From: Escherichia coli
Lineage (GTDB): Bacteria; Pseudomonadota; Gammaproteobacteria; Enterobacterales; Enterobacteriaceae
DNA: 64,000 nucleotides
Strand: one strand, 5' to 3'
Assembly (NCBI RefSeq): GCF_003790525.1
Contig: NZ_CP033636.1
The position numbers and the translations under genes were made by a program. Position 1 is the first letter of the stretch. The number at the start of each line of letters is the position of its first letter. This document shows, in pieces, positions 29,430 to 56,029 of the stretch. A model generated the notes under the pieces. The model made no database searches, was not told the origin of the DNA, and saw nothing but the letters and a program-made list of their open reading frames with translations.

Positions 29430-30476
29430 ATGACTCGTATTGCATTAGCGCCTTCAAAGATGGTTTTGCTTATGTCTTTGGTAATTACTGGTGCCCACGC
29501 CAGCCCTGAGCAACCCCTAATAAAAGATACGCCCTTTGTATCAGGCCAGGCTTATAAGAAGGGTTTCTTCTGGTATGACGATCCTGCTAAAAAAAGCGAA
29601 GCTGAAGAAGAAAAGGTTTTGCCACCAACCGGTGCTGCTAGCTCGCCTTCAAAAGAGGAAAAGGTAGATTTAAATTCAAAATGGCTAAAAGAGAATATGC
29701 CTCGACTGTTAACGCAGGCAATGGATAACCCTACCGCAGAAAATCTATCACGTTATTACACGGCGCAAAGGTTAATGCTGGATATCAGTACGCGTTTTTC
29801 TGACAAATCAAAAGATTATTTTCTTAAAAACCCGATGATGTCTGAAAAACGCAGGCAACCAGTGGAAAAGGTGGCACTGGATGCTCACCGCACTGTTGTT
29901 GAAAAAAATCAGCAAACGGTAATGAAAGATATCTTTACTAAGTCAGGTTTATTTTTCTTTTTCCAGAGTACTTGCCAGTTTTGCCACGAAGAGAGCCAAA
30001 TACTTCAATTTATGCAGAACTATTATTCGGTAGATATTCTTCCAATCAGTATGGATGGAAGGCCATTGCATAATGGCCTTTTTCAGGATTTTAACATCCC
30101 CAATGCACAAATTATTGATCAATTTAAAATTCGAGAGGTACCTACAATTTTCCTGGTTTCAAAGGATGGGACATCAGCTCAGCGCATTAGTGAAGGCATG
30201 ATCTCCGCTGATGAATTAAAGAACACTATTATACTTGCCGCGAAGGGCATGAATCTGATCGATGACGCTTCGTTTCAGTCAACTCTAGATATTAAAAGGC
30301 AATATACCATCGGTGATGATGGCGTTATTACCGTTAATAAATCCGAAATGGAATCAGACCCATTCTTACTTCAAAAAATAATGGACCAAAAACTCGAAGG
30401 CTATGACATGCCTACGGCCGATCCGGTCAATTATCTCAATGCTGGCGGCAGTTTTGGAGGCACTTATGCGCAGTAA
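29430..30476 (+). CDS. trhF: TraF/TrbB-family thioredoxin-like conjugal transfer protein with CxxC motif (TrhF-like, 348 aa)
   Basis: Signal peptide; GLFFFFQSTCQFCHEE...VPTIFLV resembles F-plasmid TraF/TrbB thioredoxin fold. Confidence 0.55.
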   Translation: MTRIALAPSKMVLLMSLVITGAHASPEQPLIKDTPFVSGQAYKKGFFWYDDPAKKSEAEEEKVLPPTGAASSPSKEEKVDLNSKWLKENMPRLLTQAMDNPTAENLSRYYTAQRLMLDISTRFSDKSKDYFLKNPMMSEKRRQPVEKVALDAHRTVVEKNQQTVMKDIFTKSGLFFFFQSTCQFCHEESQILQFMQNYYSVDILPISMDGRPLHNGLFQDFNIPNAQIIDQFKIREVPTIFLVSKDGTSAQRISEGMISADELKNTIILAAKGMNLIDDASFQSTLDIKRQYTIGDDGVITVNKSEMESDPFLLQKIMDQKLEGYDMPTADPVNYLNAGGSFGGTYAQ

Positions 30477-31881
30477 TGCCGTTTTCAACTTCAAAAAGTT
30501 ACTTTTGTCTCTTTCTGTTTGTGCTGCAATTTTAGCCCCGACTGCAAATGCAGACAACGCAATGCGTAACATTTTCAATGGCATGATGACGTCTACCAGC
30601 CCGGCCACCTTTTCCACAGCAACCCGTACAGGCATAGTTGGCGGGTCAATGTCTTACCGAACAACAAACGTTAATACCAACCTTGTTTCCATGTCGTTTC
30701 CAAAAGCTTCTGTCGGTTGTAATGGTATTGACGTTTTTCTTGGGTCCTTCAGCATGATCAACGGGGACCAGCTTGTGCAGGTGGCCCGTGGTATTGCCCA
30801 GGGTGCGGCTATCTATGCTTTTAACGTTGCTGTTTCAGCTATTTGTGCTGACTGTGCTGCAACGATTAATGACATCCAAAACAAACTGCAAGCGCTAAAT
30901 AAATTTGCGAAAGATTCATGCAATGCAACTTACTCTTTCCTTTCTGAAAACGTGGGTACGCCAAGCCAGTTCGCTAACTCAGTTAGCTCTGGACCAGCCT
31001 CAATTCTGGGATCGATTAATGGTCTCATTCCTGATTTTGGCTCATCGATGACAAAGTCACCTGAAGCTGTCACTTCTCAGGTTAAAGCAAAGGATCCCGA
31101 AGAGTTCGCTGAAAAATTCAGTGGTAACCTCTTCTATATGTCGTTCATGGATATTGATAAGGGAACAATGAACATCGGAGGGGTAACGGAGTTATCCGGT
31201 TATAAATTGGCAGAACAACTTATGTCTCTCGTGGGTACTGTCATTATCAACTGGGATAGCAAAGGCGAAAAAGCGGGAATGGAAGTCCGCCCGTCTACCA
31301 TGACTGTCACGGATTACATCATGGGGCCACCAGCTGGCGGATCAATTAAAATGCTCAAGTGTTCTCCGGCACCAGATCCATCATCCCCACGAAAGGCTCA
31401 GTGCCTTGTCATGTCAGAAGTTAATGACGGTGGTTTTAAGGGATTGAAGGATACCATTTCTGATCTTCTTTTAAACGTACAGAAAAAAATCATCAACGAC
31501 GTTCGTGTTTCAGATGATGAATTACGCATTATCTCCTATATCGGCATCCCGACCATTATCGACTCTTTGCAAACATTCGAAGCACCGGAAGGGTACGCAT
31601 ACATTCAGGACATAAGCACTATTGCTGCGACGAGCCTCGTAATCAACATGTTGCGCCAGGTTGAGGCCAAAATTTCAACCATGAGCATACCGAGTGAGTC
31701 GCTGTCGGGTAAAAGGGATGATCTCAACCGATTAACAGACAATCTCTCAAAACAGGTTAAAGCCGCCTATGAGCTATCGCACAGCCAGGTCGGTACCAGC
31801 TCGGACGTCATTTCAACCTGGGATAACCGTCGCCTGCAACGGAAGGCTTTCACTGAAAGTATTCGTGGCACACGTAACTGA
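30466..31881 (+). CDS. trhH: F-type TraH-like pilus assembly protein (TrhH-like, about 471 aa)
   Basis: Start reassigned to ATG at 30466 giving signal peptide MRSNAVFNFKKLLLSLSVCAAILAPTANA; overlaps trhF stop; stop TGA is the first 3 nt of the IS629-like element. Confidence 0.55.
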   Translation: MRSNAVFNFKKLLLSLSVCAAILAPTANADNAMRNIFNGMMTSTSPATFSTATRTGIVGGSMSYRTTNVNTNLVSMSFPKASVGCNGIDVFLGSFSMINGDQLVQVARGIAQGAAIYAFNVAVSAICADCAATINDIQNKLQALNKFAKDSCNATYSFLSENVGTPSQFANSVSSGPASILGSINGLIPDFGSSMTKSPEAVTSQVKAKDPEEFAEKFSGNLFYMSFMDIDKGTMNIGGVTELSGYKLAEQLMSLVGTVIINWDSKGEKAGMEVRPSTMTVTDYIMGPPAGGSIKMLKCSPAPDPSSPRKAQCLVMSEVNDGGFKGLKDTISDLLLNVQKKIINDVRVSDDELRIISYIGIPTIIDSLQTFEAPEGYAYIQDISTIAATSLVINMLRQVEAKISTMSIPSESLSGKRDDLNRLTDNLSKQVKAAYELSHSQVGTSSDVISTWDNRRLQRKAFTESIRGTRN

Positions 31882-31932
31882 ACCGCCCCGGGAATCCTGG
31901 AGACTAAACTTCCTGAGAAAGAGGTAAACAGG

Positions 31933-32259
31933 ATGACTAAAAATACTCGTTTTTCCCCCGAAGTCCGTCAACGGGCAGTCCGTATGGTTCTGGAAAGTCA
32001 GGATGAATATGACTCACAGTGGGCGGCAATTTGTTCCATTGCCCCAAAGATTGGCTGTACGCCGGAGACTCTGCGTGTCTGGGTTCGCCAGCATGAGCGG
32101 GATACCGGGGGCGGTGATGGTGGGCTCACCAGCGCTGAACGTCAGCGTCTGAAAGAGCTGGAACGTGAAAATCGTGAACTGCGCCGCAGTAACGATATCC
32201 TTCGCCAGGCTTCCGCTTATTTTGCGAAGGCGGAGTTCGACCGCCTCTGGAAAAAATGA
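31933..32259 (+). CDS. IS629-like transposase OrfA
   Basis: [23 protein letters not shown]... HTH/leucine-zipper OrfA of IS3 family. Confidence 0.8.
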
Positions 32260-33146
32260 TGCCACTGCTGGATAAGCTGCGTGAGCAGTACGGGGTCGGA
32301 CCGGTATGCAGCGAACTGCATATTGCCCCGTCAACGTATTACCATTGTCAGCAACAGCGACATCATCCGGATAAACGCAGTGCCCGTGCGCAGCACGATG
32401 ACTGGCTGAAGAGAGAGATACAGCGCGTATACGATGAAAATCATCAGGTGTACGGTGTGCGTAAAGTCTGGCGTCAGTTGTTACGGGAAGGAATCAGGGT
32501 GGCCAGATGTACAGTGGCGCGCCTCATGGCGGTTATGGGACTTGCCGGTGTTCTCCGGGGTAAAAAGGTCCGTACGACCATCAGCCGGAAAGCCGTTGCC
32601 GCAGGCGACCGCGTAAACCGTCAGTTCGTGGCAGAACGACCTGACCAGCTGTGGGTGGCTGATTTTACTTACGTCAGCACATGGCGGGGCTTCGTCTATG
32701 TGGCGTTCATCATTGATGTGTTTGCCGGATACATCGTGGGGTGGCGGGTCTCATCGTCCATGGAAACGACATTCGTGCTGGATGCACTGGAGCAGGCGTT
32801 ATGGGCCCGTCGACCGTCCGGCACGGTCCATCACAGTGATAAAGGTTCTCAGTATGTATCGCTGGCCTACACACAGCGGCTTAAGGAAGCCGGATTACTG
32901 GCATCAACAGGAAGTACAGGCGACTCGTATGACAACGCGATGGCGGAGAGCATCAATGGTCTTTACAAAGCGGAGGTAATACACCGTAAGAGCTGGAAAA
33001 ACCGTGCAGAAGTGGAACTGGCCACACTCACGTGGGTGGACTGGTATAACAATCGACGATTGCTGGAAAGGCTGGGCCATACTCCTCCGGCAGAAGCAGA
33101 AAAAGCTTATTATGCTTCCATCGGAAACGATGATCTGGCAGCCTGA
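32256..33146 (+). CDS. IS629-like transposase OrfB (DDE integrase core)
   Basis: Overlaps orfA by 4 nt; DDE-type catalytic core sequence. Confidence 0.8.
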
Positions 33147-33202
33147 GTTCACAGATAAAACACTCTCCAGGAAACCCGGGGCGGTTCAAACTGAGGTCTG
33201 AC

Positions 33203-36200
33203 ATGGATTACAACATATATACCCTGGGTGATATTGATTTTGTCTGGTCGGCTTTTACCGGTATTGCCCTAATCTTTTCTCAATATACTGGTGTAAAAGA
33301 GTTCCTGACCACGGCCGCCGTTGTAGCAGGTGTGAGCCTATTCTATAAAACGTGGCTATGGCTTCAGGCTCCGACCAAAAATGAATTACCGTTTTTCTCC
33401 TGGTTTTTGGGGTTGATCCTTTTCATGATGGCAATGGTTCGAGTGGATGTAACTATTGAATCTGTAAAGTCGGGAGAGGTCAGAAACGTCGACGGAATTC
33501 CAATTTTTATTGCTGCGATGGCCACCGTCACCACTAACTTAAGCCAGGGTTTGCTGAAGGATTATAAAACTGCGTTTGATCCGCTTTCTCCGGTGGACCT
33601 GTCTGCAACAACTCTGGACGATGACATCACCCTCGGTCCGATGATCCGATTCGTGAAGTTTTTGCAATGGGGCGGCGATAGCCAGGGCTACTGTTCTGCA
33701 TTTCCTGAACCGGCCAGCGGGCTAGGGCCAATGAACGTATGTGCTACCGTTCAGTCTCTTGCATACAACTGCCTGAAGGCTACCCAAAACTCAAGCGCAA
33801 ATATTGCCGGTAAAGAAACTATTTTTAACGATATTTTCTCAGCTAATCTGGCAGATAGCATGGACCGGATTAATCAGGCGATGAAAGGCGCACTGAAGAA
33901 TGCCTCTGCCAGTATTGTTGGCGCTAACGGTTCAAAATCTGGTACGTGTGATGAGGTCTGGTCAACTGTGAAACAGGTTACCAGTACAGCTGAAGCTCGC
34001 CAGACTATTTCCCTTATAGGACAGACAAACGGCATCCTTACTCCAGACGAAGCAAATGGTGCACCTACCGGCGCAAGTTTTACTGATGTTATGGCGTCAG
34101 CAAATGGTATGTACGGTAAGGCTATTGGTTCGTATGACGCCACCCTGAACCTGTTCATAATGAATGAGCTCAGAAATGGCGCAAGCAAATATAAGACCCC
34201 ACTCAGTCTGGCTTCCGATATGCAGTTGTTTGAGGCTTCTCTGAAGCGAACCAACACAATGGCTTCACAGGGCCAGTTGTGGTTACAACTGTCTGGAGCA
34301 GCAATCGCATTCCTTGAGATGTTTGCTTACATGGTTGCTCCATTTGCTTTGCTTATGCTGCTGGCGTTAGGTGGTAATGGTGTTGCCGCTGCGGCGAAAT
34401 ATTTGCAACTTATTCTCTTCGTGAATATGTGGCCGCTTACGGCAGTAATGGTCAACGCGTATGTGAAGAAAGTCGCGACGGCCGATCTGGATACCTGGAG
34501 CACCCTCAACAGCCAGAATAATGCCGTCACGTGGATGGGGCTCCCAGGGCTTGCGGAAACATACAGTTCATACCTGTCTGTTGCTTCCGCGCTTTATGCT
34601 CTGATTCCGGTACTCACATTATTCCTGATGACACAGTCGATTCACCCGATGATGAATGCGGTTAAGGGAGTGACCCCCGATGCGCCGGTGGATACTGGTC
34701 ATGTAACGCCCAAAGTATGGGATGGCCCTAACAGCGGTAAATCTTCATTTGGTGACGTGACACGAACCGCCTTGACCAGTACCGGTCAGGGATACAGCGA
34801 TGGCGGCGCAGTTGATTCAAGTAATTTCCGTCTTGGAATGTGGAATGCTGGTTCAAGTATCGCTAACAGCCAGGGGCAAGGATCAGCTGTAACCTCATCA
34901 GTTATGAGTGCGGCAAGTAATTCATTCCAGGCTGGTTACAGTCAGATGAGTGAAATTGGAAGGTCAGGACAGTCGAGCCAGCAGTTCTCAACCAACCTGC
35001 AAACAATGAAGCAGATCTCGGATAAGATTGGTGCCTCTGTAGCAGAAGGTATTGCAACGAAACATGGGGTGAGTGCGTCTCAGATGGCCAGCATTGCTTC
35101 AAATGTTATTCTAAACGCTGGGCTTAATGGAGGTGCTGGAACTGGCAACGGAGCCGGGCTGAAAGCAGCTGTAGCAGGGCAATTGAGTAGCGGCGCATCT
35201 AAGACCAATACAGGCAGTGACTCGCTTTCAAATGACCTTTCAAAAGCAATCACGAATCAGCTTAGCCAGGATTCTGCTTTGACTGACCAGTTCAGTAAAG
35301 CGGCGTCTCAGGTAAGCAGCGATCAGATATCCAATACTAATGCGTTTAAAGAAGCATCGTCGAAAATGAACCAGGCGACACAGACGATGGCGCAAAACAT
35401 TTCTACATCGGTATCGACTAACGCCAGCTCCAATAGTGGAATGAGCCTTGATTCTAAACAAAGCATTAACCTGGACAGGTTCTCCGATTCTATTCGCAAC
35501 AAAAACTTCAGTGATGATGATGTAAGGAATTTTGCTCGTAAGAATGGGCTGGATGAGAATGCGTTTATGGAGAAATTCAACTCCTATAACGATACCTTCA
35601 AGGCCAGTAATCAGCTTGGTTCGCAGCTTCAACGTACTGACGCGCTTGTGGCTGCAACACGAGATTTCAGTGAGCAAAAAATTGCGATTGATACCGCCCG
35701 GGGAGAGACGGCCGAAAGTAATAAACAGGATCTCCGTGAAACCTCCAGCCTGCTTAAAAGTCTGGTTTCCGACTTCGGTGGTAATGCACAGCAGCTGCTA
35801 CCTATCACCAATCAGCTCGACAGAATTTCAGGCGAAGGGTCAGGAATTAATACTATCACTCAGGCACAGGATAGAACTCCTGACAGCGTAAATACGTCTG
35901 GCGTGATGAGTGCGTCACGCGTAGGGGAACTGGGTGGAAGTGTTGATTCGCAGGCTAAACTCGGTCTTTCCTCCAACGCTCAGGACGCGACTCAGCGTGT
36001 CCCTGGAAAAAGTGAAGCTGGCTTTACTCCGTATAACCTTGATAACGCGGGCAAAGGCGATATTCAGGGAATACATAACAACAACGTGGGCCGCACTTAT
36101 TCTGATGAAGAAAGGAATGTGCTCAATTCTCTCAAAACGAATGGCCCTGTACTGAATAATCAGGGTGTAGAGAAAGTCGTCAATTCAGGTCAGGATGTCA

Positions 36201-37156
36201 GAAATGCAGAAGGCACATTTAACGATCTGGAAAAGGCTACCGGAGGTCGGGTGGTTGGTGATGGAATGGATCAACGAGCCACTGCTTTGAACAGTATGTA
36301 TCAGAGCGGTCAAGTTCGTGGCTTATCTAATAACACTGATAACTACTTTAGTCGTGTTGCCAACAACCCGAACTTAAGCCGGGACGATAAGCGAGCTGAA
36401 TTGGCACAGCAAGCTGTCTTTACCTATGGTGCCAGCACCATGGCTACCGGTGCCGAAAGAGAGCAGCTCAAAGCGGATACCCAGAAGATCCTTAATGAAC
36501 TGGGTAACTATAACGTTAACTGGAGTATGAATGACGTTCAGAGCATCCATAGCAGTTTCAACACTCATAACAGAGCTGATGGTTCACTTGAGTCAGTCGT
36601 ACGGGCAAACCTAGGAGAGGGTGGGTCGGGCGGTGGTCTCGTTGGTAACCGCACTCAGACCGTCACAGATCGCTTGGTTGGGGAAAAGATAGAGGCCAAC
36701 ACTGAGCGGGGCGCGATTTCTGGTGCGCTACTCGGGGGCCAGCAATTTGTTTCGGATACGCTAACCAGCGTTGGGGCGAAACCGGTAAATGAGATGCTTA
36801 CGGGAGCGGGCATCCTTCAAACCCAGACATCGATAGCAAATGATGCCTCTAACCCTGCAAATATGCCTGATTCTCTCCAGGGTAAAGTCCTTAATCACAT
36901 GCAGATGTCTGATGGCGTCGCAGCTGTAAGTGACCGGTATCAGAGTATTAGCAGCGACGGCGTTTCGACTTATGCGAATGCAGCGCAGAACTCTGAAAGG
37001 GCTATCCGGCAGCAATTGACGGATGACCCACGCTTTGGGCCTCAGAAAGCAGATGAATTCATTCAGTACATGAAGTCAGAGCTGAGCAACACAAATGAGC
37101 CTTACCAGTCACGTGTCGATAAAGCGGATCAGTGGCTTAATGAAAATAAAAGGTAG
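33203..37156 (+). CDS. trhG: F-type TraG-like mating-pair stabilisation protein (TrhG-like, 1317 aa)
   Basis: N-terminal polytopic membrane domain resembling F TraG, long Ser/Gly/Asn/Gln-rich periplasmic C-terminal region. Confidence 0.55.
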   Translation: MDYNIYTLGDIDFVWSAFTGIALIFSQYTGVKEFLTTAAVVAGVSLFYKTWLWLQAPTKNELPFFSWFLGLILFMMAMVRVDVTIESVKSGEVRNVDGIPIFIAAMATVTTNLSQGLLKDYKTAFDPLSPVDLSATTLDDDITLGPMIRFVKFLQWGGDSQGYCSAFPEPASGLGPMNVCATVQSLAYNCLKATQNSSANIAGKETIFNDIFSANLADSMDRINQAMKGALKNASASIVGANGSKSGTCDEVWSTVKQVTSTAEARQTISLIGQTNGILTPDEANGAPTGASFTDVMASANGMYGKAIGSYDATLNLFIMNELRNGASKYKTPLSLASDMQLFEASLKRTNTMASQGQLWLQLSGAAIAFLEMFAYMVAPFALLMLLALGGNGVAAAAKYLQLILFVNMWPLTAVMVNAYVKKVATADLDTWSTLNSQNNAVTWMGLPGLAETYSSYLSVASALYALIPVLTLFLMTQSIHPMMNAVKGVTPDAPVDTGHVTPKVWDGPNSGKSSFGDVTRTALTSTGQGYSDGGAVDSSNFRLGMWNAGSSIANSQGQGSAVTSSVMSAASNSFQAGYSQMSEIGRSGQSSQQFSTNLQTMKQISDKIGASVAEGIATKHGVSASQMASIASNVILNAGLNGGAGTGNGAGLKAAVAGQLSSGASKTNTGSDSLSNDLSKAITNQLSQDSALTDQFSKAASQVSSDQISNTNAFKEASSKMNQATQTMAQNISTSVSTNASSNSGMSLDSKQSINLDRFSDSIRNKNFSDDDVRNFARKNGLDENAFMEKFNSYNDTFKASNQLGSQLQRTDALVAATRDFSEQKIAIDTARGETAESNKQDLRETSSLLKSLVSDFGGNAQQLLPITNQLDRISGEGSGINTITQAQDRTPDSVNTSGVMSASRVGELGGSVDSQAKLGLSSNAQDATQRVPGKSEAGFTPYNLDNAGKGDIQGIHNNNVGRTYSDEERNVLNSLKTNGPVLNNQGVEKVVNSGQDVRNAEGTFNDLEKATGGRVVGDGMDQRATALNSMYQSGQVRGLSNNTDNYFSRVANNPNLSRDDKRAELAQQAVFTYGASTMATGAEREQLKADTQKILNELGNYNVNWSMNDVQSIHSSFNTHNRADGSLESVVRANLGEGGSGGGLVGNRTQTVTDRLVGEKIEANTERGAISGALLGGQQFVSDTLTSVGAKPVNEMLTGAGILQTQTSIANDASNPANMPDSLQGKVLNHMQMSDGVAAVSDRYQSISSDGVSTYANAAQNSERAIRQQLTDDPRFGPQKADEFIQYMKSELSNTNEPYQSRVDKADQWLNENKR

Positions 37157-37336: not shown

Positions 37337-38626
37337 ATGGCAAACAAAGTAAAAGATATTAACCATCCATCTATTAATGATAGAGAACGTCGTGTCTTGG
37401 AAGAACTAGGTATATGTAATGGTGCACACTTTAATAATTTGCTTAAAATTGCCCGCTATCGTCTCAATGCTGGTTATTCCCATGCTGAAACTGTACTTTC
37501 TTTACGCTGCACAGGCTCATACATTGAGCGTACCGTAATGCATGCCCCCAAAAATACCCGTAAAAAACTACGTGAACACCTACAAAAATTTGCTCTAGAG
37601 ACAGAGCAGAATAGCGAAACCGTTTATTCTAATTACAATACTCAGCTCCGTGTAATTCGAGAAAAAAAACAAAAAGAACATTTGATGGCCAAGCGTAAGG
37701 AGTACATTCGCGTTCGGCTAGAATCTTGTAAAACAAGGGGGGAGCGGTTGATGGCGTTCGGTCTAATTGACACTATCGATCCCGAATATATACAGGAACT
37801 GGAAGACCATCTGGCTAAGGTTAGTCATCGTAAGATGTTGGAGGATAATGACCGAAAGGTAAAAGAACGCAATAGACTGTTGAGTGAAATGAAAAAAAAT
37901 TCAGCCCGTCTCACCGAACGAATAATCCTGTCGGAAAAAGAGGAACCAGATGAAGAAGCCTCTCTTCCAATACTGGTACGTAGATATATTCCCGGCGGAC
38001 GTGCCGCAGAGTTCGCTATTTATGCACGTTCAAACGCTACATTACCTCCACTAGAGATCATTGAGGGTTTTCTAGGGTATCCAGTTGGTGGCCGCGAAAG
38101 ATCGCAGGAAGATCAGCCTAAATCTCCACCGGCCGCGATTATGGTCGCTATGAAGACTGATGGTATAGAAGAAAAGGAGCTTCAGCCGAATATTCCTGAT
38201 GAAACTACTGTACCGGGTAAGCGTAAGGGTAGTAAGACAACTGTCGAGACACGACCAGATCAGGCCTCATTTGCAGAAGCCGTCCGCAACAACTGTTATG
38301 ACCAATGTGTGATTACAGGCTCTAGACTGCGCCAGCGCACTGAGGCTGCTCATCTGATGGAGCATCGTAACGGAGGAGTAGACCATTATACAAATGGGTT
38401 GCTCTTACGCCATGATATACACGATCTTTTCGACGCAAACATGATTGCCATTCATCCGGTGACGTTGGAGGTTAACATTCTCGCTGAAGCTTTGGCGGTA
38501 GATCATGATTTAGCGGCATATCAAGGAGAGTTTATTAAGCCGCTGCGTAAACCCATCAATACTGAATTCCTAAAGCACCGTTGGCAGGTTTTTCAGCACC
38601 GGAACCAAACTGAGCAGCAAGCTTAA
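37337..38626 (+). CDS. HNH endonuclease domain protein with coiled-coil-like N-terminal region (429 aa)
   Basis: C-terminal CYDQCVITG...AAHLMEHRNGGVDHYTNGLLLRHDIHDLFD HNH-like motif; monocistronic with own upstream TACAAT -10-like hexamer. Confidence 0.5.
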   Translation: MANKVKDINHPSINDRERRVLEELGICNGAHFNNLLKIARYRLNAGYSHAETVLSLRCTGSYIERTVMHAPKNTRKKLREHLQKFALETEQNSETVYSNYNTQLRVIREKKQKEHLMAKRKEYIRVRLESCKTRGERLMAFGLIDTIDPEYIQELEDHLAKVSHRKMLEDNDRKVKERNRLLSEMKKNSARLTERIILSEKEEPDEEASLPILVRRYIPGGRAAEFAIYARSNATLPPLEIIEGFLGYPVGGRERSQEDQPKSPPAAIMVAMKTDGIEEKELQPNIPDETTVPGKRKGSKTTVETRPDQASFAEAVRNNCYDQCVITGSRLRQRTEAAHLMEHRNGGVDHYTNGLLLRHDIHDLFDANMIAIHPVTLEVNILAEALAVDHDLAAYQGEFIKPLRKPINTEFLKHRWQVFQHRNQTEQQA

Positions 38627-48367: not shown

Positions 48368-49381
48368 CTACCTCTCACTAGTGAGGGGCGGCAGCGCATC
48401 AAGCGGTGAGCGCACTCCGGCACCGCCAACTTTCAGCACATGCGTGTAAATCATCGTCGTAGAGACGTCGGAATGGCCGAGCAGATCCTGCACGGTTCGA
48501 ATGTCGTAACCGCTGCGGAGCAAGGCCGTCGCGAACGAGTGGCGGAGGGTGTGCGGTGTGGCGGGCTTCGTGATGCCTGCTTGTTCTACGGCACGTTTGA
48601 AGGCGCGCTGAAAGGTCTGGTCATACATGTGATGGCGACGCACGACACCGCTCCGTGGATCGGTCGAATGCGTGTGCTGCGCAAAAACCCAGAACCACGG
48701 CCAGGAATGCCCGGCGCGCGGATACTTCCGCTCAAGGGCGTCGGGAAGCGCAACGCCGCTGCGGCCCTCGGCCTGGTCCTTCAGCCACCATGCCCGTGCA
48801 CGCGACAGCTGCTCGCGCAGGCTGGGTGCCAAGCTCTCGGGTAACATCAAGGCCCGATCCTTGGAGCCCTTGCCCTCCCGCACGATGATCGTGCCGTGAT
48901 CGAAATCCAGATCCTTGACCCGCAGTTGCAAACCCTCACTGATCCGCATGCCCGTTCCATACAGAAGCTGGGCGAACAAACGATGCTCGCCTTCCAGAAA
49001 ACCGAGGATGCGAACCACTTCATCCGGGGTCAGCACCACCGGCAAGCGCCGCGACGGCCGAGGTCTTCCGATCTCCTGAAGCCAGGGCAGATCCGTGCAC
49101 AGCACCTTGCCGTAGAAGAACAGCAAGGCCGCCAATGCCTGACGATGCGTGGAGACCGAAACCTTGCGCTCGTTCGCCAGCCAGGACAGAAATGCCTCGA
49201 CTTCGCTGCTGCCCAAGGTTGCCGGGTGACGCACACCGTGGAAACGGATGAAGGCACGAACCCAGTGGACATAAGCCTGTTCGGTTCGTAAACTGTAATG
49301 CAAGTAGCGTATGCGCTCACGCAACTGGTCCAGAACCTTGACCGAACGCAGCGGTGGTAACGGCGCAGTGGCGGTTTTCAT
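48368..49381 (-). CDS. intI1: class 1 integron integrase IntI1 (337 aa)
   Basis: [53 protein letters not shown]... recognised IntI1. Confidence 0.95.
49266..49294 (+). promoter_or_regulatory. integron cassette promoter Pc, variant with -35 TGGACA and -10 TAAACT (PcH1-type); P2 lacks GGG insertion
   Basis: TGGACA-N17-TAAACT inside the intI1 5-prime region; downstream TTGTTA-N14-TACAGT has the inactive 14-bp spacing. Confidence 0.7.
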
Positions 49382-49449
49382 GGCTTGTTATGACTGTTTT
49401 TTTGTACAGTCTATGCCTCGAGCATCCAAGCAGCAAGCGCGTTACGCCG

Positions 49450-49520
49450 TGGGTCGATGTTTGATGTTATGGAGCAGCAACGATGTTACGCAGCAGGGCA
49501 GTCGCCCTAAAACAAAGTTG
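49450..49520. other. attI1 recombination site
   Basis: 5-prime conserved segment end ...GCAGCAGGGCAGTCGCCCTAAAACAAAGTT followed by first cassette. Confidence 0.7.
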
Positions 49521-49547
49521 TACGTAGAACTCGAAGGCAATTTAAGT

Positions 49548-50390
49548 ATGAAAGAAAAGGTAGTTGTTGATAAAGCGATTTCACTCTATACCGAATCATT
49601 CGGCGACCCGGCCCATGAACCCATTATTCTGATCATGGGGGCAATGTCGTCTGCGGTGTGGTGGCCTGATGAGTTTTGTTCCCAACTTGCCAAAATGGGT
49701 CGCTATGTGATCCGGTACGACCACCGTGATACCGGGAAATCAACAAGCTATGAGCCAGGTCAGGCTCCATATTCCGTTGAAGAATTAGCAGATGATGTGG
49801 TTCGCGTCATTGATGGTTATGGTCTGGAAGCTGCTCATTTAGTCGGCATGTCTTTGGGGGGATTTCTTTCCCAGCTTGTAGCTCTCAAGTATCCGAAACG
49901 TGTGAAGAGCTTGACGCTGATTGCTTCAGAACGGCTTGCAGATGCAGATCCGGATATGCCCGCTTTTGATCCTGCCATCATTGAGTATCACCAACGGGCG
50001 GAATCGCTGGATTGGTCTGATAGAGATGCTGTCGTCGCGTATCAGGTCGGAGCGTGGCGAATCAACTCAGGTACTGCGCATGCTTTTGACGCTGAGAAGA
50101 TACAAAACATCGCTGAGTTAAATTTTGATCGCACTCCGAATATCCTGACAACATTCAACCACACTACTTTAGGTGGTGGCGAGAGATGGCTCGGGAGATT
50201 AAATGAGATAGCTGTACCAACTTTGATCATTCACGGCACGGAGGATCCTGTACTTCCTTATGTGCATGGGTTGGCACTGAAAGATGCGATTCGTGGTTCA
50301 AAAATGCTGACACTCGAAGGCACGGGACATGAGTTGCATCATGAAGACTGGCCGAGGATTATCCAGGCGATTAAGGGGCAAACGTCATAG
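49548..50390 (+). CDS. estX: EstX (alpha/beta hydrolase, putative esterase) gene cassette
   Basis: [35 protein letters not shown]...; GMSLGG nucleophile elbow; first cassette of sul3-type array. Confidence 0.8.
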
Positions 50391-50485
50391 CTATCGGTTG
50401 CACCGTACAACAAGTTGCTGCACCGGAAAAATTACTCGCTGCGCTCGCAATTTTCCGGTGAGCAAGGCGTTAGCGCCCACAACGC

Positions 50486-51094
50486 ATGTCTCTCGCACTC
50501 TTTGACTTCGATGGCACAATTACCACTCGCGAGACGATGCCGGATTTTGTGCGGCGGTCCGTGAGCCGACGTCGACTGCTTGTGGGACAACTGCTTCTGG
50601 CGCCGCTCGTGCTTGGGTATAAGATTGGGATCTTGTCTGGCACCCTGATCCGTCGCGTCATCGTTCGCTTCGCTTACAGCGGCATCCCGGCCTCGGTCCT
50701 GGAGGCCCAAGGTCGTGACTTCGCTCAGAGCTACCTGCCCAATACCCTCCGCGGCGAGGCAATGCAGCGCATCGCATGGCACAAAGCGCAGGGGCACAAG
50801 GTTGTCGTTGTTTCCGGCGGACTTGAGGCTTACTTGGAGCCGTGGTGCGACTCGCACGGCGTTGAGCTCATCTGTTCTTCCTTGCAACAGTCGGACGGAA
50901 TCCTAACGGGCCGCTATGAAGGGCGGCAGTGCGTCTTGACGGAGAAGGCTCGCTTGGTCCGTGAGCGCTACGACCTGGCGACATATCCGACCATCTACGC
51001 GTACGGAGACACGCCGGAGGACCTGGATATGCTGGCCATTGCTACTAAGCAGTACTATCAGTGGCAAGAGGTTGGCGTCGCAGGTGGGCGCTAA
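50486..51094 (+). CDS. psp: Psp (HAD-family putative phosphoserine phosphatase) gene cassette
   Basis: MSLALFDFDGTITTRE HAD motif I; second cassette. Confidence 0.8.
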   Translation: MSLALFDFDGTITTRETMPDFVRRSVSRRRLLVGQLLLAPLVLGYKIGILSGTLIRRVIVRFAYSGIPASVLEAQGRDFAQSYLPNTLRGEAMQRIAWHKAQGHKVVVVSGGLEAYLEPWCDSHGVELICSSLQQSDGILTGRYEGRQCVLTEKARLVRERYDLATYPTIYAYGDTPEDLDMLAIATKQYYQWQEVGVAGGR

Positions 51095-51151
51095 CAAGTC
51101 ATTCAAGCCGACGCCGCTTCGCGGCGCGGCTTAATTCTGGTGTTAGACATC

Positions 51152-51943
51152 ATGAGGGTAGCGGTGACCATCGAAATTTCGAACCAACTATCAGAGGTGC
51201 TAAGCGTCATTGAGCGCCATCTGGAATCAACGTTGCTGGCCGTGCATTTGTACGGCTCCGCAGTGGATGGCGGCCTGAAGCCATACAGCGATATTGATTT
51301 GTTGGTTACTGTGGCCGTAAAGCTTGATGAAACGACGCGGCGAGCATTGCTCAATGACCTTATGGAGGCTTCGGCTTTCCCTGGCGAGAGCGAGACGCTC
51401 CGCGCTATAGAAGTCACCCTTGTCGTGCATGACGACATCATCCCGTGGCGTTATCCGGCTAAGCGCGAGCTGCAATTTGGAGAATGGCAGCGCAATGACA
51501 TTCTTGCGGGTATCTTCGAGCCAGCCATGATCGACATTGATCTAGCTATCCTGCTTACAAAAGCAAGAGAACATAGCGTTGCCTTGGTAGGTCCGGCAGC
51601 GGAGGAATTCTTTGACCCGGTTCCTGAACAGGATCTATTCGAGGCGCTGAGGGAAACCTTGAAGCTATGGAACTCGCAGCCCGACTGGGCCGGCGATGAG
51701 CGAAATGTAGTGCTTACGTTGTCCCGCATTTGGTACAGCGCAATAACCGGCAAAATCGCGCCGAAGGATGTCGCTGCCGACTGGGCAATAAAACGCCTAC
51801 CTGCCCAGTATCAGCCCGTCTTACTTGAAGCTAAGCAAGCTTATCTGGGACAAAAAGAAGATCACTTGGCCTCACGCGCAGATCACTTGGAAGAATTTAT
51901 TCGCTTTGTGAAAGGCGAGATCATCAAGTCAGTTGGTAAATGA
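51152..51943 (+). CDS. aadA2: aminoglycoside 3''-adenylyltransferase AadA2 (streptomycin/spectinomycin)
   Basis: MRVAVTIEISNQLSEVLSVIERHLESTLLAVHLYGSAVDGGLKP...; followed by about 60-bp attC. Confidence 0.9.
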   Translation: MRVAVTIEISNQLSEVLSVIERHLESTLLAVHLYGSAVDGGLKPYSDIDLLVTVAVKLDETTRRALLNDLMEASAFPGESETLRAIEVTLVVHDDIIPWRYPAKRELQFGEWQRNDILAGIFEPAMIDIDLAILLTKAREHSVALVGPAAEEFFDPVPEQDLFEALRETLKLWNSQPDWAGDERNVVLTLSRIWYSAITGKIAPKDVAADWAIKRLPAQYQPVLLEAKQAYLGQKEDHLASRADHLEEFIRFVKGEIIKSVGK

Positions 51944-52076
51944 TGTCTAACAATTCGTTCAAGCCGACCGCGCTACGCGCGGCGGCTTAACTCCGGCGTT
52001 GGGCGCACAATAAGGCTCCTTGCAGAGTTGCTTGAAAGTTGTTACGATTCAAATTCAATCATGAGATAGTCAGCAG

Positions 52077-52106
52077 ATGAGCACTTCCAAGAACGCAGAC
52101 AAGTAA
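52077..52106 (+). CDS. cmlA leader peptide (MSTSKNADK) of translational attenuator
   Basis: 9-codon ORF about 100 bp upstream of cmlA1 start, as in inducible cmlA. Confidence 0.7.
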   Translation: MSTSKNADK

Positions 52107-52204
52107 GCCGCAGCAACCTTCATTTTTCGGTTGTTGCGGCGTTCTCATGAATCCTTTTGCTCTACGGGAGCGCCGCCAAATCCTTTGTTCAAGGAGATGG
52201 TTTC

Positions 52205-53464
52205 GTGAGCTCAAAAAACTTTAGTTGGCGGTACTCCCTTGCCGCCACGGTGTTGTTGTTATCACCGTTCGATTTATTGGCATCACTCGGCATGGACATG
52301 TACTTGCCAGCAGTGCCGTTTATGCCAAACGCGCTTGGTACGACAGCGAGCACAATTCAGCTTACGCTGACAACGTACTTGGTCATGATTGGTGCCGGTC
52401 AGCTCTTGTTTGGACCGCTATCGGACCGACTGGGGCGCCGCCCCGTTCTACTGGGAGGTGGCCTCGCCTACGTTGTGGCGTCAATGGGCCTCGCTCTTAC
52501 GTCATCGGCTGAAGTCTTTCTGGGGCTTCGGATTCTTCAGGCTTGTGGTGCCTCGGCGTGCCTTGTTTCCACATTTGCAACAGTACGTGACATTTACGCA
52601 GGTCGCGAGGAAAGTAATGTCATTTACGGCATACTCGGATCCATGCTGGCCATGGTCCCGGCGGTAGGCCCATTGCTCGGAGCGCTCGTCGACATGTGGC
52701 TTGGGTGGCGGGCTATCTTTGCGTTTCTAGGTTTGGGCATGATCGCTGCATCTGCAGCAGCGTGGCGATTCTGGCCTGAAACCCGGGTGCAACGAGTTGC
52801 GGGCTTGCAATGGTCGCAGCTGCTACTCCCCGTTAAGTGCCTGAACTTCTGGTTGTACACGTTGTGTTACGCCGCTGGAATGGGTAGCTTCTTCGTCTTT
52901 TTCTCCATTGCGCCCGGACTAATGATGGGCAGGCAAGGTGTGTCTCAGCTTGGCTTCAGCCTGCTGTTCGCCACAGTGGCAATTGCCATGGTGTTTACGG
53001 CTCGTTTTATGGGGCGTGTGATACCCAAGTGGGGCAGCCCAAGTGTCTTGCGAATGGGAATGGGATGCCTGATAGCTGGAGCAGTATTGCTTGCCATCAC
53101 CGAAATATGGGCTTTGCAGTCCGTGTTAGGCTTTATTGCTCCAATGTGGCTAGTGGGTATTGGTGTCGCCACAGCGGTATCTGTGGCGCCCAATGGCGCT
53201 CTTCGAGGATTCGACCATGTTGCTGGAACGGTCACGGCAGTCTACTTCTGCTTGGGCGGTGTACTGCTAGGAAGCATCGGAACGTTGATCATTTCGCTGT
53301 TGCCGCGCAACACGGCTTGGCCGGTTGTCGTGTACTGTTTGACCCTTGCAACAGTCGTGCTCGGTCTGTCTTGTGTTTCCCGAGTGAAGGGCTCTCGCGG
53401 CCAGGGGGAGCATGATGTGGTCGCGCTACAAAGTGCGGAAAGTACATCAAATCCCAATCGTTGA
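52205..53464 (+). CDS. cmlA1: chloramphenicol efflux MFS transporter CmlA1 (419 aa, GTG start)
   Basis: AAGGAG RBS then GTG; VSSKNFSWRYSLAATVLLLSPFDLLASLGMDMYLP... recognised CmlA. Confidence 0.9.
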   Translation: MSSKNFSWRYSLAATVLLLSPFDLLASLGMDMYLPAVPFMPNALGTTASTIQLTLTTYLVMIGAGQLLFGPLSDRLGRRPVLLGGGLAYVVASMGLALTSSAEVFLGLRILQACGASACLVSTFATVRDIYAGREESNVIYGILGSMLAMVPAVGPLLGALVDMWLGWRAIFAFLGLGMIAASAAAWRFWPETRVQRVAGLQWSQLLLPVKCLNFWLYTLCYAAGMGSFFVFFSIAPGLMMGRQGVSQLGFSLLFATVAIAMVFTARFMGRVIPKWGSPSVLRMGMGCLIAGAVLLAITEIWALQSVLGFIAPMWLVGIGVATAVSVAPNGALRGFDHVAGTVTAVYFCLGGVLLGSIGTLIISLLPRNTAWPVVVYCLTLATVVLGLSCVSRVKGSRGQGEHDVVALQSAESTSNPNR

Positions 53465-53556
53465 GAGAATGTGGCAAGCTATCGCCCAACAAATCGCTGC
53501 AGCCGACCCAAAACCGCTACGCGGTTTCGGTCGGCTGAGCTCAGGCGTTAAACATC

Positions 53557-54348
53557 ATGAGGGAAGCGGTGATCGCCGAAGTATCGACTCAACTATCAGA
53601 GGTAGTTGGCGTCATCGAGCGCCATCTCGAACCGACGTTGCTGGCCGTACATTTGTACGGCTCCGCAGTGGATGGCGGCCTGAAGCCACACAGTGATATT
53701 GATTTGCTGGTTACGGTGACCGTAAGGCTTGATGAAACAACGCGGCGAGCTTTGATCAACGACCTTTTGGAAACTTCGGCTTCCCCTGGAGAGAGCGAGA
53801 TTCTCCGCGCTGTAGAAGTCACCATTGTTGTGCACGACGACATCATTCCGTGGCGTTATCCAGCTAAGCGCGAACTGCAATTTGGAGAATGGCAGCGCAA
53901 TGACATTCTTGCAGGTATCTTCGAGCCAGCCACGATCGACATTGATCTGGCTATCTTGCTGACAAAAGCAAGAGAACATAGCGTTGCCTTGGTAGGTCCA
54001 GCGGCGGAGGAACTCTTTGATCCGGTTCCTGAACAGGATCTATTTGAGGCGCTAAATGAAACCTTAACGCTATGGAACTCGCCGCCCGACTGGGCTGGCG
54101 ATGAGCGAAATGTAGTGCTTACGTTGTCCCGCATTTGGTACAGCGCAGTAACCGGCAAAATCGCGCCGAAGGATGTCGCTGCCGACTGGGCAATGGAGCG
54201 CCTGCCGGCCCAGTATCAGCCCGTCATACTTGAAGCTAGACAGGCTTATCTTGGACAAGAAGAAGATCGCTTGGCCTCCCGCGCAGATCAGTTGGAAGAA
54301 TTTGTTCACTACGTGAAAGGCGAGATCACCAAGGTAGTCGGCAAATAA
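53557..54348 (+). CDS. aadA1: aminoglycoside 3''-adenylyltransferase AadA1
   Basis: MREAVIAEVSTQLSEVVGVIERHLEPTLLAVHLYGSAVDGGLKPHSDIDLL... recognised AadA1. Confidence 0.9.
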   Translation: MREAVIAEVSTQLSEVVGVIERHLEPTLLAVHLYGSAVDGGLKPHSDIDLLVTVTVRLDETTRRALINDLLETSASPGESEILRAVEVTIVVHDDIIPWRYPAKRELQFGEWQRNDILAGIFEPATIDIDLAILLTKAREHSVALVGPAAEELFDPVPEQDLFEALNETLTLWNSPPDWAGDERNVVLTLSRIWYSAVTGKIAPKDVAADWAMERLPAQYQPVILEARQAYLGQEEDRLASRADQLEEFVHYVKGEITKVVGK

Positions 54349-54517
54349 TGTCTAACAATTCGTTCAAGCCGACGCCGCTTCGCGGCGCGGCTTAACTCAA
54401 GCGTTAGATGCCAGATTTGGCGTTGCGTATGCTCACAGAAAATCGACAGCCGCAAGACTGTTTTTGGCAACTCATAGCCACCACTATTTATCCTTCATAC
54501 CGTAGAGGAGATTGCAC

Positions 54518-54850
54518 GTGAAGAACTGGCTCTTTCTGGCTATTGCAATATTTGGTGAGGTCGTCGCAACTTCCGCACTGAAGTCCAGCCATGGATTCAC
54601 CAAGTTAGTTCCTTCTGTTGTAGTTGTGGCTGGCTACGGGCTTGCGTTCTATTTCCTCTCTCTCGCACTCAAGTCCATCCCGGTCGGCATTGCTTATGCT
54701 GTTTGGGCTGGCCTCGGCATCGTACTTGTGGCAGCTATCGCTTGGATCTTCCATGGCCAGAAACTAGACTTGTGGGCGTTCGTTGGCATGGGACTTATCG
54801 TTAGTGGCGTCGCCGTTCTAAATCTGCTATCCAAGGTCAGCGCACATTGA
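54518..54850 (+). CDS. qacH: SMR-family quaternary ammonium compound efflux protein QacH (GTG start, about 110 aa)
   Basis: [27 protein letters not shown]...; followed by aadA-type attC; last cassette. Confidence 0.8.
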
Positions 54851-55096
54851 TCGGGCTGGCATCTAACAGTTCATTCAAGCCGACGCCGCTTCGCGGCGCG
54901 GCTTAATTCAGGTGTTAGTCGGACGCCTACGGCGCCGAGGAAAAAAGAAACCAAACCATTCTTGCTGCCAAAGAGAAAAACCCCTTACGGTGGCGTACTG
55001 GGAAAGTGCGTATCTACGACGCCTTGCCGGTCTCAATGTCATGCCGTCCTCTTTCGAAGGCTGCTTGATGCAAACCTCTCAAAAATCTGGCATAAA

Positions 55097-55783
55097 CTAT
55101 CTTGACATATTCCGATTGAACACCTTCCGAATATCAGCGGCTATCAGCGGGATCTCATCTTTTTTCGTGACGTAGGAGTGGGCATTCTGCTGCAGATGAA
55201 ACTGGCAGCGTTGCCACAGAATTCCAGGGAAGACAGCATCGATTGCCGCGCGCAGTCCTGAGTGGTCATCACTGGTGATCATTCGCAGGCCGTGCATCCC
55301 TCGTCGTACGAGACCCTCGAGAAAGGAACGCCAGTTTACCTCTGCCTCACTGTTCGCGACTTCGGCGTCAAGAATATGCCGATTCCCGCTGTAATCAACG
55401 CCAATAGCCACTAGAAGCGCCTGCTTGACCACATGGGAACCGACGCGAACCGATTCATAGGTCGCATCAAGTACCAAGTATTGAATCTGTCCGACAGGCT
55501 GCGCCTTCCAAGACGTAATCTCTTCATCGAGCTCCTTTGCCAGCCTGCTGACCTGGGACGAGCTGACTTCGGTGCCACAAAGAATTTCGACGATATCCGA
55601 GACCCTGCGGGTACTTACTCCTTTGACATACATTTCGGCGATGGCGAGCTTGAGAGCACGCTCACTGCGCATGCCTTTCTCGATGCAGCTGGGATAAAAC
55701 TCCATCCCGCGAACTTGTGGTACTTTCAAGAGGACTTTCCCGGTCGCAAGATTGAATATTGGATTATTTGGATTTACCAACAA
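55097..55783 (-). pseudogene. IS256-family (mutator-type) transposase fragment, IS440-like remnant
   Basis: ...ALKLAIAEMYVKGVSTRRV... mutator-family core; N-terminal region missing; abrupt drop in GC at about 55775. Confidence 0.6.
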
Positions 55784-56029
55784 ACACTACTATTTAGCTA
55801 CGAAAACTCAAGAGAAGTACACAAAACCTTTTGGAAGTGATGGAAGTTTAAGTCCTCTTGATTATAGTGTAGGTATTGGAACAGGTTTAGAATTAGGACA
55901 TTTCCAGTTTATGTTTGGCTATGATTACCCTCTTAGTAACAGTTCGAAAGATCCAGACCTAAGTCAAGTACGCCAACACAACTTCAGAGCAAGTATAGCA
56001 TATTCATTTAGAAAGCTAAAAAAATAAAA

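Follow-up and report, generated by a model that had tools for sequence, protein, structure and literature searches.

Does an insertion sequence (IS) that leaves both neighbouring coding sequences whole still impair the transfer of a conjugative plasmid? The question was raised by the genes trhH and trhG in the window, a stretch of 64,000 nucleotides of the Escherichia coli contig NZ_CP033636.1 (assembly GCF_003790525.1). The structure of the locus was that of a simple, real and recent single transposition into the IncHI2 Tra1 region, which we regard as practically certain. For the locus as a whole, this insertion event combined with partial polarity on trhG was the best explanation and is proposed with considerable confidence.

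Insertion site and target duplication

Direct reading of the sequence placed a complete 1310-bp element of the IS3 family at positions 31879-33188 on the plus strand, where it separates the last sense codon of trhH from the original stop codon of this gene. This last sense codon, AAC at 31876-31878, was also the left copy of a 3-bp target-site duplication, and the right copy AAC was located at 33189-33191. Both copies were recognised from the sequence and from the empty site, which held a single AAC versus the two copies flanking the IS. In a three-way junction alignment, the empty site read CGTAAC followed by TGAGGTCTGACATG. The apparent direct repeat comprised 6 bp, AACTGA, because the IS starts with TGA and the target also continues with TGA. 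Based on the canonical 5'-TG…CA-3' ends of the IS, only the 3-bp AAC belongs to the true duplication.

The reading frame of trhH was now terminated by the TGA at 31879-31881, which represents bases 1-3 of the IS. The original TGA was displaced to 33192-33194 and was followed by GGTCTGAC and the ATG of trhG at 33203, so that 14 bp separate the IS from this ATG. The displaced stop codon and the Shine-Dalgarno sequence of trhG shared the plus-strand segment 33192-33202, in which TGA overlapped GAGG (33193-33196) ahead of a 6-nt spacer; the arrangement was the same in the empty site. Much of this had been proposed in the initial annotation. Its 1310-bp element with AAC direct repeats was borne out by direct reading and by the empty-site alignment, its position of trhG 14 bp past the IS by direct reading, and its equation of the last sense codon of trhH with the target repeat by the sequence and the single AAC in the empty site. 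The claim that TrhH is unchanged also held, with the IS-terminal TGA standing in for the displaced stop, and the inferred pre-insertion sequence proved to be real, being found in NZ_LT795115.1 and dozens of IncHI2 plasmids.

In NZ_LT795115.1 and dozens of further IncHI2 plasmids, the site was empty and both flanks were 100% identical to the window. The span comprised 2988 bp in the empty site and 4301 bp in the window, and the difference of exactly 1313 bp is explained by the 1310-bp IS plus the 3-bp duplication. With the IS and duplication removed, 14,987 of 14,988 bases were identical to NZ_LT795115.1, the sole SNP being located in mobH, and the trhG DNA was identical in both. The flank-matching plasmids were typed as IncHI2A / MOBH / MPF_F. 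By identity and synteny, the locus was assigned to the IncHI2 Tra1 transfer region with trhR-trhY and trhF-trhH-trhG, as represented by pHNSHP45-2, pGD80-2 (KY075659), NZ_LT795115.1 and R478 (NC_005211.1), with which it shared flanks of 100% identity, the R478 match being on the trhH side. The IncHI2 Tra1 plasmids inspected differed from it in having an 8-nt trhH-trhG gap in place of the 1313-bp insertion. The sul3-type class 1 integron architecture described for pJXP9 also adjoined Tra1 here. The integron array in the window was intI1-estX-aadA2-cmlA1-aadA1-sul3, and the plasmid also carried aac(3)-IV.

A left-junction query of 72,556 PLSDB plasmids and 5,426 complete E. coli genomes gave no record covering the insertion junction, and scans of genome and metagenome contigs for the exact 34-nt junction gave no matches. 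The trhH-trhG junction was uninterrupted in 954 of the 956 plasmids having it, and trhG directly followed trhH in all 73 contigs read that encoded the exact TrhH protein. The difference of one base over the surrounding 15 kb, together with a junction seen nowhere else, marks the event as recent and private to this plasmid.

IS629-type elements are multicopy, occupying a median of 4 places per E. coli genome, and repeats of this kind often confuse short-read assemblies, so an IS misplaced at the trhH-trhG junction had to be considered. Against such an artefact, the element was complete and ended exactly at its inverted repeats, and the 3 bp duplicated perfectly on its two sides occur just once in the empty site. 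A mis-join creates no target duplication, and the artefact was therefore rejected as barely credible.

Identity of the inserted element

Many E. coli chromosomes and plasmids contained copies with 100% identity to the element over all 1310 bp; these copies bear only the unnamed annotation 'IS3 family transposase'. The IS629-like label of the initial annotation was confirmed by comparison with depositor-annotated copies in Stx phages, namely IS629 in AP012533.1 and FM180578.1 and IS1203v in NC_004914.3, to which the element was 97.5-97.6% identical over 1310/1310 bp. Under the ISfinder convention, isoforms share at least 95% nucleotide identity with the named element. On sequence identity of at least 95% over the full length, calculated to the depositor-annotated copies, the element was assigned to the IS629 isoform group (IS629, IS1203, IS3411). 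IS1203 and IS3411 are regarded as IS629 isoforms, IS629 subtypes are 4-5% apart, and the reported target duplication of IS629 is 3-4 bp (PMC3271280).

Terminal inverted repeats of 25 nt were detected by an inverted-repeat search, IRL (TGAACCGCCCCGGGAATCCTGGAGA) at 31879-31903 on the plus strand and IRR at 33164-33188 on the minus strand. They were complementary at 23/25 positions and ended in TGAACC…GGTTCA. The repeat motif occurred at only these two sites in the 64-kb window, versus 0.00 expected by chance. IRR also held a terminator-like hairpin and T-run on the minus strand (33179-33167), directed against transcription coming into the IS from the right-hand side.

Both transposase genes were co-directional with trhH and trhG. 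The upstream gene orfA (31933-32259, plus strand) encoded the N-terminal transposase part of 108 aa and aligned to positions 1-86 of the 369 positions of NF033516. The catalytic part with a DDE/RNase-H fold was encoded by orfB (32256-33146, plus strand; 296 aa), which matched positions 93-369 with 313.6 bits (cutoff 160) and the Pfam families rve (E = 7.3e-26), HTH_21 and rve_3. OrfA and OrfB jointly spanned this model of the IS3 family transposase end to end. A programmed −1 frameshift region was predicted at 32214-32330 on the plus strand. It comprised an A6 run at 32251-32256, the overlap of the orfA stop with the orfB ATG (AAAAAATGATG) and an ALIL pseudoknot, which matched Rfam RF01497 over the full model length with 121.5 bits (gathering score 50). 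PGAP annotates the same feature, as 'AL1L pseudoknot', in identical IS copies.

The two-ORF DDE transposase, the predicted −1 frameshift signal, the TG…CA inverted repeats and the short duplication together assign the element to the IS3 family. With IS629, IS1203, IS1203v and IS3411 of E. coli and Shigella, it shared the length of 1310 bp, imperfect 25-bp inverted repeats with TG…CA ends, the orfA/orfB arrangement with a −1 frameshift at an A-run and an ALIL pseudoknot, and the 3-bp duplication. It differed from these elements in its divergence of ~2.4% from the O157/Stx-phage copies and in its insertion site, which was unrecorded in the collections searched.

Transfer genes flanking the element

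The first gene of the putative operon was trhF (29430-30476, plus strand), a TraF-like pilus-assembly gene with a thioredoxin fold (TIGR02740, 328.7 bits; cutoff 232.25), identical in its DNA to trhF of NZ_LT795115.1, the product of which is given there as a thioredoxin family protein. It was followed by trhH (30466-31881, plus strand; 471 aa), which matched Pfam TraH (PF06122, E = 5.5e-57), used the stop codon supplied by the IS and was identical in its DNA to a gene annotated as IncHI-type conjugal transfer protein TrhH. Beyond the IS, trhG (33203-37156, plus strand) was intact and encoded a mating-pair protein of 1317 aa with TraG_N domains (PF07916, E = 1.2e-19 and 1.2e-12). It retained its own GAGG Shine-Dalgarno sequence.

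By these domain matches, TrhF, TrhH and TrhG were assigned as homologues of the F-type mating-pair proteins TraF and TraH and of the N-terminal region of TraG. Scores against the F-plasmid equivalog models were below the cutoffs, indicating that the products are homologues and not the F proteins themselves. In 2002, Lawley et al. reportedly found TrhF, TrhH and TrhG to be needed for H-pilus production. All three are listed among the Mpf proteins (PMC11628540).

An overlap of 11 nt between trhF and trhH and a gap of 8 nt between trhH and trhG without the IS are consistent with a single trhF-trhH-trhG operon. This operon is supported indirectly, by analogy to R27, and trhG is placed in it by position. 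In R27, Tra1 consists of the R, F and H operons, and trhF and trhH belong to the F operon, which is activated by TrhR/TrhY (PMC7366339). The R27 F operon contains homologous genes in the same order, with trhF and trhH in one operon, and features TrhR/TrhY activation, HtdA repression and thermoregulation. R27 belongs to the IncHI1 subgroup, unlike the IncHI2 plasmid studied here, and the operon assignment is carried over from IncHI1.

Transcription and RNA signals around trhG

The initial annotation had proposed that the right end of the IS be searched for outward promoters, and consensus scans detected none there. On the plus strand, no promoter-like site with at least 9 of 12 matches to the sigma-70 consensus was present anywhere in the IS. 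A laxer scan gave three 8-of-12 sites with poor hexamers and non-optimal spacers, all of them more than 75 bp from the end of the IS. The distance of only 14 bp to the ATG rules out, on geometric grounds, a hybrid promoter with a −35 box in IRR, since the −10 box would fall downstream of this ATG. Neither an outward nor a hybrid promoter was thus predicted to be provided by the IS.

In the plus strand between orfB and trhG, no T-run was found behind a G+C-rich hairpin; the only T-runs in this part were 4-5 nt long and all within coding sequence. The only plus-strand terminator candidate was a weak 6-bp stem within orfB. Like the promoter scans, the terminator scans were consensus-based, and weak or non-sigma-70 signals escape them. 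Candidate Rho sites were sought with the C/G ratio, which is a heuristic, Rho dependence not being reliably predictable. A C-rich, G-poor stretch at 32308-32385 (C/G 1.56), just after the orfA stop, could load Rho. Overall, the IS RNA was G-rich, with a median C/G of 0.82 versus 1.13 for trhH, and was less rut-like. RNA structure at the IS-trhG junction was not significant (z = −0.33), and folds that would hide the trhG ribosome-binding site or cause fold-back inhibition at IRL were like those of shuffled sequences (z −0.33 to +0.66). A literature search returned nothing specific on polarity or promoter activity of IS629.

Discussion

An intact IS629 isoform integrated into Tra1 of a pHNSHP45-2/pGD80-2-like IncHI2 plasmid and duplicated AAC, probably by the copy-out/paste-in movement of the IS3 family via a circular intermediate. 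With TGA as the first codon-sized unit of the IS, TrhH is left unchanged, and TrhG and the Shine-Dalgarno sequence of trhG are likewise unaltered; trhG is shifted 1313 bp from trhH and loses the 8-nt stop-to-start spacing. Transcription of trhG would then depend on RNA polymerase that crosses the whole IS after starting either at the TrhR/TrhY-activated F-operon promoter upstream of trhF or at the weak promoter of the IS. As orfB is mainly translated after frameshifting, its ribosome cover is probably thin. A co-oriented IS without a predicted intrinsic terminator and with a thinly translated orfB leads to the expectation of partial, Rho-type polarity. A polar effect on trhG, as put forward in the initial annotation, is plausible given the tight packing of trhF, trhH and trhG, the operon assignment in R27 and the outward promoter not found in the scans. 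The chance that trhG expression and transfer frequency are lowered, reduced but not abolished, is judged to be about even. Read-through could still express trhG, given the co-orientation of the IS, the lack of a plus-strand terminator in the scans and the gene's own Shine-Dalgarno sequence, three points not weighed in the initial annotation. Abolished transfer is accordingly not the default expectation, a reduction appearing more likely.

The classical IS insertions of the gal and lac operons, among them those of IS3, originally came to light as mutations of strong polarity. The present insertion resembles IS1, IS2 and IS3 in gal/lac, and IS3 in finO of the F plasmid, in that the IS lies between co-transcribed genes or in tra-related genes; in those cases, the expression of downstream genes or of the conjugation machinery was altered. 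It differs from them in that no coding sequence is broken and the ribosome-binding site of the downstream gene is preserved. The polarity could be strong here too, with Rho-dependent termination in the poorly translated orfB, no TrhG and loss of self-transfer, making the plasmid an evolutionary dead end or the insertion a cost-saving loss of conjugation. This outcome would fit the outward promoter not found in the IS and the C>G stretch immediately after the orfA stop. IncHI2 plasmids without Tra1 (traJ~trhG) do not conjugate (PMC9913981, PMC9739812), and transfer region I was lost in experimental evolution of an IncHI2 plasmid, with changes reducing the fitness cost (PMC11575406). The almost universally uninterrupted junction and the restriction of the insertion to this plasmid in the collections searched fit a non-spreading variant, but uniqueness proves little, since a given position on a 250-kb plasmid will seldom receive an insertion. 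Complete polarity is also opposed by the orientation of the IS with the operon and its lack of an intrinsic terminator, by its G-rich RNA, which is less rut-like than that of trhH, and by some translation of orfA and orfB in addition to the Shine-Dalgarno sequence of trhG. It is considered possible but unlikely.

Normal or constitutive trhG expression, through an internal or outward promoter of the IS or through efficient read-through, is more doubtful still. Charlier et al. are said to have described IS3 in 1982 as a 'mobile promoter', and some IS3-family elements reportedly activate neighbouring genes. Outward −35 boxes in IRR are known in IS911 and IS2 (PMC9330008), and the IncHI2 plasmid pE648CTX-M-65 (MN200941), with two IS629 copies, was reported to be conjugative (PMC7533269). 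However, the resistance genes described for that plasmid (blaCTX-M-65, floR, blaOXA-1 and an integrase-less integron) differ from those of the window, and it was set aside as evidence on transfer. The failure of any plus-strand site in the IS to reach 9 of 12 matches, the poor 8-of-12 sites and the misplaced −10 box of a hybrid promoter also argue against an unaffected or raised expression. A very improbable extension of partial polarity couples IS629 transposition to conjugation and makes the IS a reversible brake on trhG. A co-directional IS in the TrhR/TrhY-activated, temperature-controlled F operon would have its transposase genes transcribed upon induction of the transfer genes, and excision would let the plasmid alternate between low transfer at little cost and proficient transfer. 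IS629 is known to excise precisely in an IEE-dependent manner (PMC9330008), and function has been regained in IS629 insertion mutants (PMC13410964).

The insertion is an ordinary one, and it opens neither a new mechanism nor a long-standing question. Its biological weight is small: ISs come and go on multidrug-resistance plasmids, and this is a further case. If transfer is lowered or abolished, the plasmid with its sul3-type class 1 integron, cmlA1, aadA genes and aac(3)-IV would spread clonally and not horizontally, which would bear on the epidemiological reading of the isolate. As a naturally occurring single-step mutant, it could also be used to ask what amount of TrhG the H-type mating apparatus needs.

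Insertion site and identity of the element

The trhH ORF, so named by PGAP in identical plasmids, was located at 30466–31881 on the + strand and ended with the codons CGT AAC TGA. Its stop codon (31879–31881) was at the same time the opening triplet of an insertion sequence of 1310 bp (31879–33188, + strand), which started with TGAACCGCCCCGGG and ended with CCCGGGGCGGTTCA. The element was followed by AAC (33189–33191), TGA GGTCTGAC and the ATG of trhG at 33203, an ORF of 1317 codons on the + strand. Direct reading of 31700–33400 agreed exactly with the initial annotation in all coordinates, in the AAC repeat of 3 bp, in the distance of 14 bp to trhG and in the stop codon 'regenerated' by the IS. 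The displacement of trhG was likewise confirmed, with trhG now lying 1313 bp further from trhH and the operon promoter. The terminal inverted repeats of 25 nt were complementary at 23/25 positions. Within the 64-kb window, their motif occurred only at the ends of the IS, with 0.00 chance matches expected.

Two + strand ORFs were detected in the element. OrfA (31933–32259, 108 aa) matched positions 1–86 and OrfB (32256–33146, 296 aa) positions 93–369 of the NCBIfam IS3-family transposase model, the latter with 313.6 bits versus a cutoff of 160. Jointly they spanned the model end to end, and OrfB held the HTH_21 and rve integrase-core domains. The orfA/orfB overlap read AAAAAATGATG, and an ALIL frameshift pseudoknot was matched by Rfam at 32214–32330 over the full model length with 121.5 bits. 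The pseudoknot was also annotated in identical IS copies elsewhere; many E. coli chromosomes and plasmids carry copies 100% identical over 1310 bp. From its sequence, the copy looks fully functional.

Identity was 97.5–97.6% to IS629 (phage 2851, Stx2a_F723) and IS1203v (phage Stx2 II) as named by depositors. IS1203 and IS3411 are considered isoforms of IS629, IS629 subtypes differ by 4–5% and target duplications by IS629 are 3–4 bp long (PMC3271280). The label 'IS629-like' is therefore accurate. The closest match in the phage collection was AF017626.1 (H86, 98.4%), a fragment of phage 21 in which the match lies under the integrase gene; this copy was nearer than the IS629 copies of O157 Stx phages (97.5–98.1%).

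Origin and rarity of the insertion

Dozens of IncHI2 plasmids matched a 4301-bp query across the site in two pieces at 100% identity. The plasmid-side span was 2988 bp, 1313 bp less than in the window, corresponding to the 1310-bp IS and the 3-bp duplication. In the near-identical IS-free IncHI2 plasmid NZ_LT795115.1, a three-way alignment of both junctions gave the empty site as GGCACACGTAAC followed directly by TGAGGTCTGACATGG, with one AAC. Since the window without the IS and one AAC equalled NZ_LT795115.1 over 14,988 bp of Tra1 except for one base, the insertion is, by this comparison, a simple and recent transposition into an otherwise standard backbone. The lone mismatch, C versus G at 24942 (position 543 of locus L001), was located in the mobH relaxase gene. 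Mis-assembly was ruled out because the target duplication was perfect.

Neither the 72,556 PLSDB plasmids nor the 5,426 complete E. coli genomes searched contained the IS junction, and scans of genome contigs and metagenome contigs did not find it either. The trhH–trhG junction was uninterrupted in 954 of the 956 plasmids holding it. The one exception listed, H165, matched only as far as the end of its record and again elsewhere in that record; its junction therefore looks split by record ends, not interrupted. In each of the 73 contigs that were read around the exact TrhH protein, trhG lay directly downstream of trhH. Given the absence of the junction from every searched collection and the intact trhH–trhG order in relatives, the insertion is a private event as far as these sequences reach. 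This status fits a non-spreading variant and the rarity of any single site equally, and carries no functional conclusion.

In the collection, 27,557 blocks listed the exact TrhH protein. Together with the trhF-trhH-trhG cluster it was also found on contigs of 4.9–5.4 Mb (L002, L004, L005, L007; e.g. CP015574.1, CP082668.1); IncHI2 transfer regions are therefore also chromosome-integrated, or on co-assembled replicons.

Flanking transfer genes

Upstream of trhH, a TraF-like gene (trhF, 29430–30476, + strand; TIGR02740, 328.7 bits) overlapped it by 11 nt. TrhH matched Pfam TraH (E = 5.5e-57) and TrhG matched TraG_N. Matching plasmids were typed as IncHI2A, MOBH, MPF_F and conjugative. In IS-free plasmids, 8 nt separate the trhH stop from the trhG start, and the GAGG Shine-Dalgarno sequence of trhG overlaps that stop. 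Lawley et al. reportedly found in 2002 that H-pilus production and transfer require trhF, trhH and trhG. The mating-pair formation proteins include TrhF, TrhH and TrhG (PMC11628540). Tra1 of the IncHI1 prototype R27 comprises the R, F and H operons; the F operon includes trhF and trhH, and its regulators are the activators TrhR/TrhY and the repressor HtdA (PMC7366339). Directly downstream of trhG, a 429-aa ORF (37337–38626) showed no NCBIfam match and was annotated in identical plasmids as 'HNH endonuclease signature motif containing protein'. This ORF and trhG may share a transcript, and any polarity would then reach the ORF too.

Other features of the window

A sul3-type class 1 integron (48368–56821) adjoined Tra1, with intI1 (337 aa, − strand), estX, an HAD-family gene (psp), an aadA2/aadA3-like gene, cmlA1, aadA1 and, further on, sul3 (56030–56821, − strand). 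Rfam placed an attI/AAC_AAD leader at 49471–49546. The IncHI2 plasmid pJXP9 has the same array next to transfer region I (PMC11575406). An SDR oxidoreductase gene was present at 57573–58436 (− strand). An AAC(3)-IV acetyltransferase domain covered residues 204–454 of a long ORF at 59071–60435; its 341-aa neighbour (60664–61689) is probably aph(4)-Ia, by annotation of matching plasmids. ORFs of 173 aa (4283–4804) and 283 aa (4801–5652) overlapped in the manner of IS150, and plasmids 100% identical to window 1–25000 were annotated with 'IS3-like element IS150 family transposase'. A second IS3-family element, unrelated to the IS629 copy, is thus probably present at about 4283–5652. It appears common to many relatives, unlike the IS629 copy.

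Consequences for trhG expression and transfer

TrhH and TrhG were unaltered and the ribosome-binding site of trhG was retained. An outward promoter at the right end of the IS, raised in the initial annotation as a possible rescue of trhG, was not detected: the + strand of the IS held no sigma-70-like promoter at standard threshold, and a lax scan (8-of-12) gave three poor candidates, none of them close to the right end. Hybrid promoters with a −35 box in the right inverted repeat (IRR) and a −10 box in the flank have been described for IS3-family elements (PMC9330008). At trhG such a promoter cannot work because the −10 box would lie past the ATG.

A polar effect on trhG is a reasonable idea from the gene arrangement. 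We give roughly even credence to partial polarity, in which read-through transcripts would supply trhG at a lowered level and transfer frequency would be lower. Complete loss of transfer is doubtful. It is made less likely by the co-orientation of the IS with the operon, by the + strand downstream of orfB, which held no G+C-rich hairpin with a T-run (T-runs were of 4–5 nt only, all within coding sequence), by RNA folds at the new trhG leader and the left inverted repeat that were no more stable than shuffled controls, and by the mostly G-rich IS RNA. A single C-rich, G-poor stretch lay just downstream of the orfA stop and might serve Rho when frameshifting fails. An insertion wholly without effect on transfer is improbable. 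The initial interpretation was partly supported: it was sound in structure and incomplete, since it left out co-orientation and read-through. On the − strand, the IRR formed a short hairpin rich in G+C with a T-run behind it (33179–33167; CCGGGTTTCCTGG AGAGTGTTTT), a terminator-like site that would face transcription entering from beyond the right end of the IS; the + strand had no equivalent.

IncHI2 plasmids without Tra1 (traJ to trhG) do not conjugate (PMC9913981, PMC9739812), and the very similar plasmid pJXP9 lost transfer region I in experimental evolution, beside cost-reducing changes (PMC11575406). Precise excision of IS629 is aided by the IEE protein (PMC9330008), and regained function was seen in IS629 insertion mutants (PMC13410964). 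These observations allow the speculative and highly improbable reading that the insertion would restrain transfer reversibly, or would couple transposase expression to the induction of transfer genes. Both the IS and the plasmid backbone are already known, and the insertion site, although not recorded before, is unremarkable.
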